Source: Bacteroidales bacterium | GTDB taxonomy: Bacteria; Bacteroidota; Bacteroidia; Bacteroidales; P3 | Reading direction: 5' to 3' | Length of the DNA stretch: 64,000 nt | Assembly (NCBI GenBank): GCA_031272705.1 | Contig: JAISTG010000076.1 | Location: 19,204-83,203, forward strand | Shown: positions 4,772 to 40,715 of the stretch, piece by piece | Layout: every line of letters starts with the position of its first letter | Numbering within the stretch: the stretch's first letter is position 1 | Made by a program: the position numbers and the translations under genes | The notes under the pieces: generated by a model | The model's database searches: none | Seen by the model: the letters and a program-made list of their open reading frames with translations, nothing else | What the model was told of the DNA's origin: nothing

Positions 4772-4937
4772 GTGTTTCTGAACCTTTATCTCGGCGTAGC
4801 CAAATCAAATTACAGCGTGCTAGAATTTGATTATAGATTTCTGTAATTTGATTCCAGCGTTCTATAATTTGATTCTAATTTTCTATAATCAAATTCTAAA
4901 AAATTAGAATCAAATAAGAGAAATCCGTAATCAACTT
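4772..4937. repeat. 21-bp-phased AAT-CAA-ATT module array, locus A (7 modules)
   Basis: 9-mer cores start at 4803(+), 4824(-), 4845(-), 4866(-), 4887(+), 4908(+, AATCAAATA) and 4929(+, AATCAACTT), exactly 21 bp apart. The left flank GTTTCTGAACCTTTATCTCGGCGTAGCCAAATC matches the left end of locus D. Confidence 0.9.
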
Positions 4938-8225: not shown

Positions 8226-8229
8226 GAAA

Positions 8230-8433
8230 GGACAGCCAACGAATGGTTTAGGACAACCAACGGATGGTTTAGGACAGCCAACGGATGGTTTAGGACAGCC
8301 AACGAATGGTTTAGGACAACCAACGGATGGTTTAGGACAGCCAACGAATGGTTTAGGACAGCCAACGAATGGTTTAGGACAGCCAACGGATGGTTTAGGA
8401 CAGCCAACGAATGGTTTAGGACAGCCAACGAAT
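8230..8433. repeat. 21-bp tandem repeat GGACAGCCAACGAATGGTTTA, 9 full units plus 15 bp
   Basis: Units start at 8230+21n. Only two positions vary: G/A at unit position 6 and A/G at position 13. Open in three frames, which is a repeat artefact. Confidence 0.95.
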
Positions 8434-15443: not shown

Positions 15444-15890
15444 ATGATTAGAACGAACAAAATCCTTTTTCATATAATTAACTATTTGAAATACAGATAT
15501 AAAGCCAAGAATGAATTTTCTATTCATTCTCCTTATATGTTTGAAACCTATCTTCAATGTATCAAGGGACGGAAAGATGATGATATAATCAGGGAACTGT
15601 CCAAACGAAATCAAGTTATAGAATTCTATAATCAAATTCCAGCAAACTGTAATCAAATTCTAGCGAACTGTAATCAAATTACAGAATTCTGTAATCAAGT
15701 TTCAGCAAACCATAATCAAATTACAGTAATTTATTACTTGAAAGGAATTTATCAAAACAAAAAAACACTGCAACAATGGGAAGAATTGCGGCAGCGAAAT
15801 AATGTATCACTTGATATAAATCTTTACTCTATGGGCTTGATTGTATGCAGAAAAGGTTTAAAACGTCAATCCTATATTCTAAAACGCTAA
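15444..15890 (+). pseudogene. probable remnant of a class I SAM-dependent methyltransferase; core replaced in frame by repeat array B
   Basis: The N-terminus (YLKYRYKAKNEFSIHSPYMFETYL) and C-terminus (VSLDINLYSMGLIVCRKGLKRQSYILKR) resemble the ends of ~220-aa Bacteroidota methyltransferases. No GxGxG SAM-binding core is present. The middle 42 codons are six 21-bp modules. Confidence 0.45.
15606..15734 (+). repeat. 21-bp-phased AAT-CAA-ATT module array, locus B (6 modules, all same orientation)
   Basis: Cores at 15609 (AATCAAGTT), 15630, 15651, 15672, 15693 (AATCAAGTT) and 15714. Translates in frame as heptads NQVIEFY NQIPANC NQILANC NQITEFC NQVSANH NQITVIY. Confidence 0.9.
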
Positions 15891-17852: not shown

Positions 17853-19229
17853 TTATTGATATTTTCTCTTAAAGAACCATCTGTCCTTGGCAGATAGGGA
17901 TAAACCGATACGGAAGAAGTTTTCACGTATCAAATTATTGGCTGTTGTGCCTTTAATACCGTATTCAAATGACAGGTTTATAAGCGTTGAGGATTTTCTT
18001 ACAGGGAATCCCAATCCCAAAGCAACACTGTACTGTTTTATTCTTGTACCCTGTGTGCTTATTCGGTCGTTATCAAAACTCATATAGCCCTCGTCGTAAT
18101 TCAAACCGATACGATAGGTCATTTGAGCGAAGTAATTACCATATATATCAGGCGTTATCTCACTTCCAAATCCTATATTCCAACTGTCAAGTAAAGGATC
18201 AGCGGCATCTTCCGATTGAAGACGGAACTGAGACCATTGAGTAAATTGAGCATCCGCACCTATAAAAAATTTCTTTGGCTTTTCATAAGACAGACCTAAC
18301 CCAAAAGATTGCGGAAACGTTATTTTACCACTGTAAGACGAGTCCATAACTATATCTCTCGTTGATTCTACGCCGTTACTTGACACAAATGTATAAAACT
18401 GTCTTGTGTTGTTGGTATTCAAAGAAAGAGGCAGGACATACGAACCGCCAATTCCAAACCTGTCTCCATTATTAAAGGTATGAAAATACTGCAATCCGAT
18501 ATTGAAATTGAAACTTTTGATGTCGTAAATGACGCCATCGCGACTGTTATACAAAGAAGAATCAACCGTATAACGATGAATTGACGTATCGGTAGAGTTA
18601 AATAAAGTATCGGTATTGTCATTAAATATGAGTGCAGACCGCTTTGTGTATCGTCCAAAAAGATATTCAACATTCAAACCGAGCGAAAGATTGTCCTTTT
18701 GCTTGGAAAACGCAAAGTCATAAGCCGCACCGAGCAATACCTTGTTTAATCCTCCGTAACCGTCATACTGTTTGCGATAAAAGGTTGTGTCGCTTACCTG
18801 CACTACTTCCGAAGCTTCGTAATCTATATCCGACAAAGGAACTAATCCTGCTGCCATTTTAAGATGCGAAGTTACGGGAAAAGCAAACGCAATGTGCGAT
18901 AAAGCCCCCATCATACCGCTTACCTGTGTTTTGGAAGAAGACATGGTTAGGAAATCTGCGTGAAAGCCCACGTCAAATACAAAACTCATGGTATCAACTC
19001 CGCAATAGGAAGCAGGGTTCTTAAAATTCACGATGTTATTGCGTGATAAGGCATAACCTACTCCCCCAATAGATGACGAGAAGGCATTGGAAAAAACGTT
19101 TGTATTCCCAATTCCATAGCGCGAATAGGGCGAACTTAGTGCTTCCTGTGCCGTTGCAGTTTGCAATAAACCTGTAATAATCAGCAAAAAAGCCGTTACA
19201 CTTCTAATTATTTGTTTTTTTATTTTCAT
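17853..19229 (-). CDS. outer-membrane beta-barrel protein (putative porin), function unknown
   Basis: 458 aa with a signal peptide, an SPYSRYGIG N-terminal motif, alternating beta-strand pattern and an aromatic C-terminus region (FFRIGLSLSAKDRWFFKRKYQ). Confidence 0.5.
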   Translation of the reverse strand: MKIKKQIIRSVTAFLLIITGLLQTATAQEALSSPYSRYGIGNTNVFSNAFSSSIGGVGYALSRNNIVNFKNPASYCGVDTMSFVFDVGFHADFLTMSSSKTQVSGMMGALSHIAFAFPVTSHLKMAAGLVPLSDIDYEASEVVQVSDTTFYRKQYDGYGGLNKVLLGAAYDFAFSKQKDNLSLGLNVEYLFGRYTKRSALIFNDNTDTLFNSTDTSIHRYTVDSSLYNSRDGVIYDIKSFNFNIGLQYFHTFNNGDRFGIGGSYVLPLSLNTNNTRQFYTFVSSNGVESTRDIVMDSSYSGKITFPQSFGLGLSYEKPKKFFIGADAQFTQWSQFRLQSEDAADPLLDSWNIGFGSEITPDIYGNYFAQMTYRIGLNYDEGYMSFDNDRISTQGTRIKQYSVALGLGFPVRKSSTLINLSFEYGIKGTTANNLIRENFFRIGLSLSAKDRWFFKRKYQ

Positions 19230-19944
19230 TCAATAATATATTGTTTAAGCCAAAGAGGACTAAATTAGTCTCCAATGTGTGTTTTACCTTTATACTTTTT
19301 GATATAAATTCCGCATCTCCTCCACTCAACACCACATTAAGCGGTTCAAACTTATCCATATATCGTTTAATCATTCCCTCTACCTCTTCCAATGTGCCGT
19401 TGATAACTCCCGACAGAATAGATTCCTCTGTTGTTGTACCGATAAGTGCGGAAAAATGTACCACATTTATTAACGGCAAATTTGCAGTAAAATTATGTAA
19501 GGCTGAAAATTTCATTCGCAATCCGCAGGAAATACTTCCGCCAAGATAGTCTCCCAATGCCGTAATGGCATCAAAAGTTATACACGAACCGCAATCAACA
19601 ACCAATGTATTCATATTGTGATACAGGGCATTAGCACCAACCATGGCAGCCATCCTGTCCTGTCCCAGAGTTTCCTTGCTGCGATATAAAACATTGATAC
19701 CTGTTTTCCATTTCTCACTCTCAACAAAATGATACTCGGATTTAAGAAAAGAAATTAGAACATCGGCATTTGCATCCTTCATAACAGAGCAATAAACAGC
19801 ATTTTTTATCATAGGAAAACGCTCTTTCAGTTGTTGCAAAGCAGCAAGCGAAAGTCTGTCGTACCTTTCACAAAAAATCATATCGGTATTGCTGAAAACA
19901 GCCACCTTATCCTTTGTATTTCCTCTGTCTATGACTAAATTCAT
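19204..19944 (-). CDS. coaX: type III pantothenate kinase
   Basis: ORF trimmed to MNLVIDRGNT (the DxGNT motif of CoaX), downstream of a TAccTTTG box. GxDR motif (GQDRMAAMVGA) present. Confidence 0.85.
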   Translation of the reverse strand: MNLVIDRGNTKDKVAVFSNTDMIFCERYDRLSLAALQQLKERFPMIKNAVYCSVMKDANADVLISFLKSEYHFVESEKWKTGINVLYRSKETLGQDRMAAMVGANALYHNMNTLVVDCGSCITFDAITALGDYLGGSISCGLRMKFSALHNFTANLPLINVVHFSALIGTTTEESILSGVINGTLEEVEGMIKRYMDKFEPLNVVLSGGDAEFISKSIKVKHTLETNLVLFGLNNILLNENKKTNN

Positions 19945-19972
19945 TATCTCTTTCTCTTGTTTTAAGAGGGTG

Positions 19973-19980
19973 CAAAGGTA
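19973..19980 (-). promoter_or_regulatory. -7 promoter box TAccTTTG
   Basis: Lies 29 nt upstream of the coaX ATG at 19944 and inside the ORF-track extension. Confidence 0.55.
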
Positions 19981-20090
19981 CAAAAGTTTATTCAATTACC
20001 ATAACTATTGACCAAAATTAAGTCTAAATGTATAAAAAAAGAGTTTTATCACACTGAAAACAACTATTGATTATCAGCAAGTTTGCTTTT

Positions 20091-20196
20091 GTGTTTCTGA
20101 AATCAAATTACAGCGTGCTATAATCAAATTACAGAATTTTATAATCAAATTACAGCGTGCTGTAATTTGATTATAAAATTCTGTAATTTGATTTCA
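20091..20196. repeat. 21-bp-phased AAT-CAA-ATT module array, locus C (5 modules; 72-bp near-perfect palindrome)
   Basis: Cores at 20101(+), 20122(+), 20143(+), 20164(-) and 20185(-). 20122-20155 is the exact reverse complement of 20160-20193, with a 4-nt centre CGTG. Confidence 0.95.
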
Positions 20197-20280
20197 GGAA
20201 ATCCTAATGAGCAATCCTCCCAAATGAAAAGAAATAACACTAAATTATTATGTCCATTTGCTCATATCAATTTTTTTTTC

Positions 20281-20288
20281 TACTTTTG
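20281..20288 (+). promoter_or_regulatory. -7 promoter box TActTTTG
   Basis: Lies 38 nt upstream of the iorA ATG. Confidence 0.5.
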
Positions 20289-20325: not shown

Positions 20326-21933
20326 ATGGATAAACTTTTATTATTAGGAGACGAAGCCATTGCACAAGCAGCCATAGATGCGGGTTTGTCGGGCGTTTTT
20401 GCCTATCCGGGCACTCCTTCAACCGAAATAACAGAATATATACAGGACTCCAAAGAAGCCAAAGCAAAAGGTATCCGTTCCAACTGGGCTTGCAACGAAA
20501 AGACAGCAATGGAAGCGGCGTTGGGAATGAGTTATGCGGGCAAGCGAGCAATGTTTTGCTGCAAGCATGTGGGCATTAACGTGGCGGCAGATCCCTTTTT
20601 GAATTCCGCAATCACGGGTGCAAACGGCGGATTGATTTATGTAGCAGCCGATGATCCCTCTATGCACTCCTCACAGGACGAACAGGACTCACGTTTCTAC
20701 GGAGACTTTGCCTTCATGCCAACATTGGAGCCAAGCAATCAGCAGGAAGCATACGATATGGTGCTGTATGGCTTTGAGTTAAGCGAAAAATACGGCGTTC
20801 CCGTACTGATGCGTATCACTACACGTATGGCTCACTCCCGTGCAGCAGTGGTTCGCAAGGGTGAAAAGGCTCAAAATAATCTCAAAATACCGGATAATCA
20901 AAACCAATTCATATTACTGCCCGTTAATGCACGCAGACAGTACAAGGAATTGCTGGCTAAACAGCCTGATTTGATGAAAGCGGGCGTTGAAAGCGGCTTC
21001 AATAAATATATGGAAGGCGAAGACAAGTCTATGGGAATCATTGCCTGCGGTATTTCCTACAATTATTTGATGGAAAACTTTGTTTCGGGACAATGTAACT
21101 ATCCCGTATTGAAACTTTGTCAATATCCTGCTCCCGAAATCCTGATAGAAAAGATGTACGATGAATGTAACAGCATACTTGTTCTTGAAGAGGGACAGCC
21201 ACTTCTTGAACAGAAATTACGCGGACTACTCAACAAAGGCAAGCAAATAAAGGGACGTCTTGACGGAACTTTGGAACGCACCGGTGAATTGAACCCTAAT
21301 ATGGTTGGAAAGGCATTGGGCTTACATATAACTGAGGGCTTGTCCGTTCCATCTTTTGTTGCTCCACGTCCTCCAAAGTTATGCGACGGTTGTCCGCACA
21401 TTGATTCTTTCCTTGCTTTGAATGAGGCGATTGAACCTTATGGAAAGGGTCGCGTTTTCAGTGATATAGGCTGTTATACGCTTGCTGCACTGCCTCCTTA
21501 TAACGCTATATACTCCACAGTTGATATGGGAGCATCAATAACAATGGCTAAGGGTGCGGCGGAAGCAGGTTTAATGCCATCCGTAGCAGTCATTGGCGAC
21601 TCCACATTTACACACAGCGGTATGACAGGCTTGTTAGACTGTTGCGTAGATAACATTCCAATCACCATAATAATACTTGACAACGACATAACGGGAATGA
21701 CAGGTTCTCAAAAGTCATCTGCAACAGGTAGAATTGAGTCTATCTGCAAGGGAATAGGCGTTGATGAGGCTCATATAAGGGTTTTCAATCCGTTAAAAAA
21801 GTTCCATGCCGACAATGTAAAGATTATACAGGAGGAATTGGCATATCAGGGCGTTTCCGTAATCATTCCAAGAAGAGAATGTTTGGTTTGGTTGAAGAAA
21901 AAACTTAATGCCGCACGCCAAAACAAACAATAG
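20326..21933 (+). CDS. iorA: indolepyruvate ferredoxin oxidoreductase alpha subunit
   Basis: 535 aa. LLLGDEAIAQAAIDAGLSGVFAYPGTPSTEI N-terminus, LCDGCPH cluster region and TPP-binding GDSTFTHSGMTGLLD. Confidence 0.85.
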   Translation: MDKLLLLGDEAIAQAAIDAGLSGVFAYPGTPSTEITEYIQDSKEAKAKGIRSNWACNEKTAMEAALGMSYAGKRAMFCCKHVGINVAADPFLNSAITGANGGLIYVAADDPSMHSSQDEQDSRFYGDFAFMPTLEPSNQQEAYDMVLYGFELSEKYGVPVLMRITTRMAHSRAAVVRKGEKAQNNLKIPDNQNQFILLPVNARRQYKELLAKQPDLMKAGVESGFNKYMEGEDKSMGIIACGISYNYLMENFVSGQCNYPVLKLCQYPAPEILIEKMYDECNSILVLEEGQPLLEQKLRGLLNKGKQIKGRLDGTLERTGELNPNMVGKALGLHITEGLSVPSFVAPRPPKLCDGCPHIDSFLALNEAIEPYGKGRVFSDIGCYTLAALPPYNAIYSTVDMGASITMAKGAAEAGLMPSVAVIGDSTFTHSGMTGLLDCCVDNIPITIIILDNDITGMTGSQKSSATGRIESICKGIGVDEAHIRVFNPLKKFHADNVKIIQEELAYQGVSVIIPRRECLVWLKKKLNAARQNKQ

Positions 21934-24941: not shown

Positions 24942-25117
24942 CGTTTCCGGAACCTTTATTTTGGCGTAGCCAAATCTAATTACGATTCTCCATAATCAAA
25001 TAATATTTCTCTAAAATCAAGTTTCATTCATCTATAATCAAATAATAGACAAATATAATCTAATTATAGAACAATAGAATTAGATTTGGCTACGTCGAGT
25101 TAAAAGTTCGGAAAAGT
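24942..25117. mobile_element. MITE-like element: locus D array (6 modules) bounded by ~38-bp imperfect terminal inverted repeats
   Basis: The left end CGTTTCCGGAACCTTTATTTTGGCGTAGCCAAATCTAATT matches the reverse complement of the right end CTTTTCCGAACTTTTAACTCGACGTAGCCAAATCTAATT. Cores at 24973+21n (n=0-5), variants AATCTAATT/AATCAAATA/AATCAAGTT. No coding capacity. Confidence 0.7.
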
Positions 25118-38854: not shown

Positions 38855-39175
38855 GAAAGCCCGTTTTAATTTCACGAAACCTAGGTTCTAAAAAAATGAA
38901 ACCTAGGTTTCGTGAAATTGAAACCTAGGTTCTAAAAAAATGAAACCTAGGTTTCGTGAAATTGAAACCTAGGTTCTAAAAAATTAAAACCTAGGTTTCG
39001 TGAAATTGAAACCTAGGTTCTAAAAAAATGAAACCTAGGTTTCGTGAAATTGAAACCTAGGTTCTAAAAAAATGAAACCTAGGTTTCGTGAAATTAAAAC
39101 CTAGGTTCTAAAAAAATGAAACCTAGGTTTCGTGAAATTAAAACCTAGGTTTCACAACTCACGAAACGGGCTTTC
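38855..39175. repeat. array of 13 AACCTAGGTT palindromes at exact 22-bp phasing (44-bp alternating unit), flanked by a 12-bp inverted repeat
   Basis: AACCTAGGTT starts at 38878+22n for n=0-12. Units alternate GAAACCTAGGTTCTAAAAAAAT and GAAACCTAGGTTTCGTGAAATT. The flanks GAAAGCCCGTTT (38855-38866) and AAACGGGCTTTC (39164-39175) are reverse complements. Confidence 0.95.
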
Positions 39176-39203
39176 GTCAAAATGAAACGCCGTTCCATAA
39201 CAA

Positions 39204-40643: not shown

Positions 40644-40715
40644 ATGAATATATCGGGTTTGGAAGTGCATAAAGATAGTATATTGTGTATGCTTTACGAT
40701 GGAAAAACCATTTGA
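40644..40715 (+). pseudogene. possible 23-codon stub of an IS110-family transposase
   Basis: MNISGLEVHKDSILCMLYDGKTI-stop resembles the M..(I/V)G(I/L)DVHK(D/K)S(I/F)..C N-termini of IS110-family DEDD transposases. A TAtaTTTG box at 40612-40619 precedes it and repeat array G follows directly. Confidence 0.3.

Follow-up and report, generated by a model that had tools for sequence, protein, structure and literature searches.

The window analysed here is a 64,000-nucleotide stretch of a Bacteroidales genome (C27:19204-83203 in an assembly of 2.15 Mb, 125 contigs, 37.6% G+C and 98% completeness). It contains a long palindrome, here called locus C, between two divergent genes. One is coaX, for a type III pantothenate kinase; the other is iorA-like, for the alpha subunit of indolepyruvate ferredoxin oxidoreductase, and its best match is the IOR_alpha model TIGR03336 at 490 bits, under the equivalog cut-off of 650.9. 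Both genes are transcribed away from locus C. An earlier note made from the letters alone, the sequence-only reading, had placed a 72-bp palindrome between divergent coaX and iorA promoter boxes; both boxes and both genes were found as named, and the palindrome is present in the assembly with the sequence as quoted. A repeat search gave arms of 35 nt with 100% complementarity around a 2-nt GT spacer (Table 1), and the 34-nt arms around CGTG reported earlier are the same palindrome with each arm counted one base short.

The palindrome is not free-standing. It consists of modules 2-5 of a row of five 21-bp modules, and the whole element measures 107 bp, or 101 bp from CTGAAA to TTTCAG. The ends of the element, TTTCTGAAATCAAATT on the left and AATTTGATTTCAGGAA on the right, are terminal inverted repeats, as in MITEs (miniature inverted-repeat transposable elements). 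A second, imperfect dyad with 52-nt arms of 81% complementarity has its axis in module 3. As single-stranded DNA, locus C is predicted to fold at -34.2 kcal/mol, compared with -9.2 +/- 2.4 kcal/mol for 200 dinucleotide shuffles (z = -10.5). The closest other copies of the element in this genome are 86% identical over all 107 bp.

Table 1. Coordinates in the window of the parts of locus C and of the flanking genes and promoter boxes.
Feature	Position	Strand	Remarks
Whole repeat element (locus C)	20094..20200	.	five 21-bp modules, +++--; inverted ends TTTCTGAAATC (left) and GATTTCAGGAA (right)
Palindrome left arm	20122..20156	+	module 2, linker ACAGAATTTTAT, module 3, then ACAGC
Dyad-axis spacer GT	20157..20158	.	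middle of linker 3 (ACAGCGTGCTGT); sequence and repeat search
Palindrome right arm	20159..20193	-	inverted modules 4 and 5 with mirrored linker ATAAAATTCTGT
Module 1 core AATCAAATT	20101..20109	+	outside the perfect arms
Module 2 core AATCAAATT	20122..20130	+	motif search
Module 3 core AATCAAATT	20143..20151	+	motif search
Module 4 core, + strand reads AATTTGATT	20164..20172	-	centre-to-centre spacing exactly 21
Module 5 core, + strand reads AATTTGATT	20185..20193	-	motif search
coaX, type III pantothenate kinase	19204..19953	-	PF03309 2e-42; TIGR00671 127 bits; start 141 nt from element
coaX -7 box TACCTTTG, Bacteroidota type	19973..19980	-	outside element
Second TAnnTTTG box TAATTTTG	20013..20020	-	coaX side
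iorA -7 box TACTTTTG	20281..20288	+	outside element
iorA-like, indolepyruvate ferredoxin oxidoreductase alpha subunit	20326..21933	+	start 126 nt from element

That the palindrome belongs to a repeat family, as the sequence-only reading had also proposed, was borne out by arrays of AATCAAATT throughout the genome. With up to two mismatches, the 13-mer AATCAAATTACAG has 39 matches in the window against 4.8 expected, clustered at seven loci, and exact 13-mers number 288 in the whole genome. In total, 208 arrays of at least two modules contain ~970 modules and occupy 21.8 kb, or 1.0% of the genome. Each module comprises a 9-nt invariant core, AATCAAATT, and a 12-nt variable linker. Core positions are 99-100% invariant except for +2, where A and G are split 85/13%, and linker and flanking positions reach 46-91%. 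Centre-to-centre spacing is 21 bp in 684 of ~740 neighbouring pairs, in any orientation, and 42 bp in a further 45, where the gap is one degenerate module skipped by the search. Each module is a 7-3-7 quasi-palindrome (YTRTAAT-CAA-ATTAYAR), so that inversion of a module keeps the lattice in phase.

Locus C has the typical layout of the family. Within contiguous five-module arrays, a single switch from + to - was observed 21 times against 7.6 expected, and the opposite switch only twice; five modules form the commonest class (66 of the 208 arrays) and 101 bp is the commonest length. The +++-- arrangement is thus what the family most often shows. CYGAAA stands at both ends of 35 arrays, whose lengths all equal 17+21n and in 14 cases 101 bp. 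At array ends in general, the last module faces inward in 242 cases and outward in 129. A leader with GTAG (GGCGTAGCC) is found in about 18 arrays, where the 21 nt CCTTTATCTCGGCGTAGCCAA separate the first core from the terminal TTTCTGAA; it is missing from locus C. The leader holds a small GGC-GTA-GCC hairpin with GTAG (window examples are 4780-4802 and 24944-24972 / 25085-25115), and locus D has the leader at each of its ends, inverted.

The arrays are ~97% intergenic, and the 6 of 208 that overlap open reading frame (ORF) calls are probably overlapped by spurious ones. As 21 nt equal seven codons, arrays in one orientation give rise to spurious ORFs; long examples that stay open in frame are C74:10450-10869 (18 modules detected), C5:17861-18175 (~15) and window 15609-15726 (6). 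Other 21-nt repeats also yield ORFs, for example one that reads MKRFHSV many times over. Contig ends lie within 500 nt of a AATCAAATT array in 31 of 250 cases, which makes the arrays a main cause of assembly fragmentation.

The family is narrowly distributed. We refer to the source genome as G000, to its congeners as G001-G003, and to members of other genera of the same family as G004, G005 and G019. The direct-dimer pattern has 283 matches in this genome. The three congeners have 6, 1 and 0, a single other genus of the family has 36, and 36 further relatives have none. A search of ~185,000 species representatives for the exact dimer turned up only that other genus, two more Bacteroidales bins and one repeat that appears coincidental. 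In metagenome contigs the family dimer was found at 27 loci, all G019-like or unrelated and none close to this species. The few arrays of G001 (loci L027-L031) alternate AATCAAATT and AATCAAGTT cores in one orientation, and sit within a larger conserved repeat that also holds arrays of the GAAGTCAAAT / AAGCAAAT motif. The G019-type element (loci L015-L024, L034 and L088-L111, in G019 and metagenome contigs) is a uniform ~135-bp unit of five lattice modules; two of these have the variant core AATCAAGAG/CTCTTGATT and form a 16-bp stem, followed by a conserved tail (cttaac...gttaattaag...ggttaag).

How did this copy become perfect? Genome-wide there are 279 orientation switches, most of which have perfect arms of only 9-17 nt, the core alone; about 10 reach at least 27 nt, and locus C is the third longest. 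Arm complementarity at locus C is 35/35, while the family median is 28 and other copies fall at 24-29 (n=18) or 32-35 (n=4). Taking the consensus of 23 +++-- windows as the reference, 7 arm positions of locus C differ and none of the differences breaks a pair. Two pairs are compensatory (20139/20176, C-G to T-A; 20153/20162, T-A to C-G), and single changes at 20152, 20159 and 20173 each create a pair; two differences in the left part of the element that can be scored on this axis are neutral for pairing. Across +- junctions in general, 34 cases could be scored; in 5 of them the linkers mirror each other exactly, where shuffling predicts 0.78 (P about 2e-4), and the rest look random. Since mirrored linkers exceed expectation, some process makes certain copies symmetric. 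Template switching at quasi-palindromes homogenises arms and inverts spacers (PMC8604942, PMC7202029), and it creates and maintains perfect stems without selection (PMC8794818). The changes at locus C are probably the signature of arm homogenisation templated in this manner.

Modules are also rearranged within arrays. In the G019-type element, inverted arms of 16 bp enclose the 17-nt module ATAGAATCAAATTACAT (module 4). Among otherwise near-identical copies from one genome and several metagenomes, this module is + in 13 and - in 14. In the present genome, four arrays that share the same conserved flanks beside paralogous genes have 5, 5, 6 and 7 modules and differing orientation strings. As both module number and orientation differ between conserved flanks, the arrays change in place. 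The paralogues encode secreted proteins of ~370-430 aa with a C-terminal sorting domain of the type IX secretion system (T9SS) and share a near-identical 3' end and terminator hairpin, with a AATCAAATT array ~80 bp further on (C113:25405-26526, C51:4719-5840 and C29:15520-16212, as well as loci on C11, C55, C117, C82, C13 and C109).

We consider it likely, with a probability of about 0.75, that the palindrome is the inner part of an ordinary copy of a lineage-specific, non-coding, dispersed intergenic repeat, that it was perfected by hairpin-templated copying, and that it is a by-product of this process and not a dedicated control element of coaX and iorA. As one of ~200 dispersed copies, and one probably perfected by such copying, it is an unlikely control site for these genes. 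Once inverted modules had paired within one strand, the arms would be made alike, and the segment between them inverted, by template switching during replication or by gene conversion from arm to arm. At locus C, modules 2-3 and 4-5, their linkers and the central linker would in this way have been made perfectly complementary. The product would persist as a short palindrome situated >80 nt from either core promoter, in a genus without the SbcCD hairpin nuclease.

Several points weigh against this interpretation. Neither a mobilising enzyme nor a target-site duplication was found for the family. The template-switch argument uses a family consensus and not a known ancestor, and the same pattern of changes would follow from a recent inverted duplication or from selection for pairing. 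The module number and orientation at locus C rest on one short-read metagenome assembly; no independent assembly of the species was found by exact CoaX or IorA protein, or by a unique 22-nt flank in metagenome contigs. Finally, the near-invariance of the core across genera and the two-turn phasing could mean that a protein reads the sites, in which case a local effect on coaX and iorA would be possible.

With respect to mobilisation, the family resembles repetitive extragenic palindromes (REP) and their assemblies in bacterial interspersed mosaic elements (BIMEs) and REPINs, in that it is high in copy number, extragenic and made of units in both orientations. A dependence on REP-associated tyrosine transposases (RAYTs) was rejected: no match to the RAYT / Y1 transposase domain PF01797 was found in G000 or the three congeners, it is present in relatives that do not have the repeat, and the modules carry no 5' GTAG/GGAG tag. 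There is no target-site duplication at locus C (flanks ...TTTTGTG / ATCCTAA...), and none recurs among 35 clean-ended copies. Neither an autonomous insertion sequence (IS) with the same ends nor a multi-copy transposase ORF was found, and only IS110 remnants turned up; these are weak negatives, since metagenome bins often lose IS copies. Remnants of IS110-family (DEDD) transposases with internal stops lie at C113:3009-3338 and C36:3073-3300, and a 23-codon IS110 N-terminal stub (window 40644-40715) ends ~25 bp before array G. No intact IS110 is present in this genome, nor was there a significant match in nine relatives (one weak 16-bit match in G004). IS110 was rejected as the mobiliser, as the two pseudogene remnants and one stub are not generally beside arrays.

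Other candidates for a mobile or replicative origin were also set aside. Multi-copy ORFs that might have been hidden transposases are in fact T9SS, leucine-rich-repeat or surface proteins, or tandem-repeat read-through. A 300-bp sequence common to several array flanks is not an IS; it is the 3' end and terminator of the paralogous T9SS-sorted family. Iterons, a replication origin or a plasmid partition site do not fit 208 dispersed loci and neighbours such as coaX and iorA, and no similarity of the repeat to viral, plasmid or phage records was found.

The sequence-only reading had called the retention of the palindrome notable, as long perfect palindromes are usually unstable in bacteria. This claim is weakened by the genome itself, which contains 42 perfect inverted repeats with arms of at least 20 nt and loops of at most 12 nt, half of them in the AATCAAATT family. 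Fourteen perfect palindromes have arms of at least 30 nt, and only one other has a spacer as short as that of locus C (on C37, loop 1, not in a AATCAAATT array). The other long palindromes of the AATCAAATT family have loops of 10-12, so locus C, with the shortest spacer among them, is the most cruciform-prone copy of the family. Furthermore, none of the four genomes of the genus (G000-G003) has sbcD or sbcC, and adjacent full-length sbcD-sbcC genes (~405 + ~1035 codons) are present in three other genera of the family (G019, G004 and G005). Work from the Leach laboratory in E. coli reportedly puts 72 bp well below the sizes at which palindromes are lethal or highly unstable. With 42 perfect palindromes in the genome and a genus without sbcCD, retention of this one is not remarkable.

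A further suggestion was that the palindrome might act as a recombination hotspot. The coaX-iorA junction is peculiar to this genome. Two congeners have coaX immediately downstream of a codirectional gene, and neither a divergent iorA nor an array is there; in G002, coaX comes after queA and iorA after a TonB-receptor-like gene; and in G001 and G003, iorB directly follows iorA. The partners displaced here each have an array on the corresponding side (C5:17861-18175, C59:27249-27437 and C124:12756-12881). The iorB gene of this genome is on another contig (C124:11983-12564, - strand; 90% identical to the gene after iorA in G001/G003), which means that the iorA-iorB operon has been split here, and the new upstream region of iorB holds a six-module array (C124:12756-12881).

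In a synteny sample of ~720 kb from six relatives, arrays occur in 0/125 intergenic regions with conserved adjacency and in 38/228 with broken adjacency, locus C among the latter (per-side Fisher P = 3e-9). When the count is limited to regions whose non-array spacer is 100 bp or longer, the figures are 0/17 conserved and 33/125 broken (P = 0.013). The association between arrays and breakpoints is real, and may mean either that arrays promote rearrangement or that they settle only in unconstrained junctions. Because conserved adjacencies are mostly tight operons unable to take an insert, operon constraint can explain much of the bias. For the hotspot proposal this is support of a correlative kind only. 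Congeners without the array are also without the coaX-iorA junction. CoaX is 57-63% identical or less to its congener counterparts, and a search for CoaX relatives among genome contigs gave only one, distant, locus.

Could the arrays instead be phased clusters of sites to which some abundant, dimeric DNA-binding protein attaches, for instance a nucleoid-associated or HU/IHF-like protein or a domesticated recombinase? The core would then be the recognition site, and the 21-bp spacing would place the sites on one helix face. The local architecture of the DNA would be shaped by such arrays, which might insulate neighbouring promoters or couple them, and this explanation is compatible with a selfish repeat. 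It would account for a core that stays invariant, +2 excepted, while linkers vary, and for the recurrence of the same core in elements of congeners and another genus despite different linkers and flanks. It would also account for the 7-3-7 dyad symmetry of every module, the strict phasing of 684 neighbouring pairs at about two helical turns, and the 21-23-bp period of many unrelated families here and in relatives.

No candidate protein has been identified, however, and core invariance could also arise through recognition by a transposase or recombinase, or through recent amplification. Lone cores outside arrays are near the chance rate (219 against ~160 expected from the window rate), and three of the four genomes of the genus are nearly without the family, which can thus serve no essential host function. 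In favour of a binding protein, IHF-binding variants occur among the BIMEs of E. coli, and the AATCAA of the core fits the WATCAA half of the IHF consensus, but the TTR part is not in register, and a reading of the core as an IHF site was rejected since the WATCAA half alone fits. Overall, we regard binding by a phasing protein as unlikely to be what the arrays are for.

The 21-bp period is not peculiar to AATCAAATT. Tandem Repeats Finder reported 565 tandem arrays genome-wide, of which 274 have period 21, 83 period 42, 39 period 22 and 20 period 44. Together, arrays with a period of 21-23 bp cover ~52 kb, or ~2.4% of the genome, and the same excess was seen in samples from 5 of 6 relatives (G001, G002, G003, G004 and G019). 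About half of the arrays with period 21, 42 or 63 belong to other, unrelated families, in which the unit is a short palindrome and an A/T-rich linker; examples of such palindromes are TGTAACGTTACA, TAGCATGCTA and CCGAGCATGCTCGG. Example tandem arrays are found at window 8229-8433 and 38876-39188, and at C124:36228-36598, C52:21815-22122 and C77:31568-31814.

A bolder reading can be built on this periodicity. The AATCAAATT arrays might be the most abundant members of an undescribed class of genome architecture of this family of Bacteroidales: hundreds of intergenic arrays of unrelated sequence families, with a 21-23-bp period of two helical turns and alternating dyad-symmetric segments, in which modules are flipped in place and arms homogenised, situated at every gene-order breakpoint. 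A dedicated recombinase or nucleoid protein would read the cores and set the period, and the coaX/iorA palindrome would be a freshly processed copy. We hold this to be speculative and rather improbable.

Far less can be said for a dedicated cis-regulatory insulator or shared operator of coaX and iorA, the role that had been suggested for the palindrome between these promoters. Its position midway between two -7 boxes, and its standing as the most symmetric palindrome of its family with the shortest spacer, would suit such a role. Yet the arrays occupy all gene contexts roughly in proportion to intergenic length: 96 are between tandem, 52 between divergent and 28 between convergent genes, or 55/30/16%, against length shares of 58/29/13%. 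Arrays lie a median of 133 nt from 5' gene ends and 55 nt from 3' ends, and 74 of the 96 in tandem contexts are nearer the upstream stop codon; at 141 and 126 nt from the two gene starts, locus C is typical. The congeners examined have neither the coaX-iorA junction nor an array at this position, and the family is nearly absent from them. No regulator gene was found among the genes neighbouring locus C.

Nor does the element resemble a promoter. A scan of the locus found no TAnnTTTG box within the repeat element, and the density of this motif is 0.41/kb in arrays against 4.67/kb in other intergenic DNA, a tenfold depletion. A promoter function of locus C was rejected on these grounds, and matches from a sigma-70 scan were discounted, as the sigma-70 model is not relevant to Bacteroidota. 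A special regulatory role at this one locus is therefore very improbable.

Equally hard to sustain is the proposal that the symmetry was selected to form a stable hairpin in RNA or single-stranded DNA, for example as a processing site, a stabiliser, or a replication or transfer signal. The folding energy of the locus, and the two compensatory pairs and three pair-creating changes relative to the subclass consensus, are what such selection would leave. The same signature is left by template switching without selection (PMC8794818), however, and 18 of the 23 comparable copies have only 24-29 of 35 positions paired, so pairing is not a family-wide constraint. The neighbours are transcribed away from a locus that has no promoter box inside. 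Searches against Rfam gave only tRNAs in the window, and at locus C nothing beyond far sub-threshold matches to models of generic hairpins (miRNA precursors). An intrinsic terminator was rejected, as both neighbours point away, the stem has only 3 G-C pairs in 20, and scan matches merely mirror the palindrome.

The least probable explanation is an artefact, in which a short-read metagenome assembly took a chimeric or mis-threaded route across a repeat: 21-bp-period repeats and the contig ends that cluster near arrays are a setting in which this might happen, but locus C is 39 kb into a contig of 117.6 kb and has unique sequence on either side, its 72 bp are by inference shorter than a usual read, thirteen other loci of several families have perfect arms of at least 30 nt with different linkers, and independent assemblies of G019-like organisms show the same sort of module flips.

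For locus C itself, the preferred reading as an ordinary repeat copy is deflationary: no special function is needed, and its retention needs no special explanation. The family is of more interest than the single copy, given that it makes up ~1% of the genome, undergoes in-place inversion and arm homogenisation, and is found in a genus that has lost sbcCD. It offers a natural system for the effects of template switching on repeats, for palindrome tolerance in small genomes and for repeat-driven rearrangement in uncultured Bacteroidales. In practical terms, the arrays break short-read assemblies and create spurious ORFs. What is new here is a variant of the dispersed modular intergenic repeat, and it is the family and the genome-wide 21-bp periodicity that deserve attention. 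A literature search for the motif returned only chance matches in primer lists.

Several known systems invite comparison. The clustered perfecting changes and spacer inversion seen here are like those of quasipalindrome hotspots in E. coli (PMC7202029), flip-flop inversion (PMC8604942) and the perfect stems of hairpins (PMC8794818). The cases described there are lone inverted repeats within genes or RNAs; acting on a whole family of phased modules, as here, the same process would give orientation mosaics. The Correia/NEMIS elements of Neisseria, SMAG of Stenotrophomonas and the REPINs of Pseudomonas are likewise lineage-confined, intergenic and hairpin-forming, with hundreds of copies and a link to genome plasticity. 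Unlike the present arrays, Correia elements have a TA target duplication and a fixed length of 100-155 bp, and SMAG and REPINs carry GTAG and depend on RAYTs. For none of the three has a 21-bp lattice been described in which modules flip in place.

Within the Bacteroidales, Porphyromonas gingivalis has the BrickBuilt MITE, which contains a 23-nt minisatellite (PMC4596501), as well as 22-, 23- and 41-nt repeats and MITEPgRS. Like the AATCAAATT arrays, these are always intergenic and lineage-specific, and have units of ~21-23 nt without spacers, variable unit number, predicted long stem-loops, no Rfam match and small inverted ends. BrickBuilt differs in having direct repeats only, a 200-300-nt leader and tail, IS5-type ends (GAGACC...), a copy number of 19 and promoter activity reported in both directions (PMC4596501); the present family has modules in both orientations, a leader of at most 21 nt at ~18 arrays, ~208 arrays, no matching IS and a depletion of -7 boxes. 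Locus C was therefore not assigned to a MITE of the BrickBuilt type, having no leader or tail, modules in both orientations and ends unrelated to GAGACC... (PMC4596501).

The BIMEs of E. coli, in which REP units alternate in orientation and are joined by defined linkers, and which include BIME-2 arrays and the IHF-binding RIB/RIP forms, are also high-copy, extragenic and non-coding, with short imperfect palindromic units placed both ways and few linker types; their clusters vary in unit number and are usually nearer 3' than 5' ends. Here, by comparison, there is a rigid 21-bp lattice with in-place module flips, no 5' GTAG tag and no RAYT, in a lineage of Bacteroidales, and there is no relation in sequence. 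We conclude that the E. coli BIME is the closest parallel in logic, and that the P. gingivalis repeats are the closest published parallel in the order.

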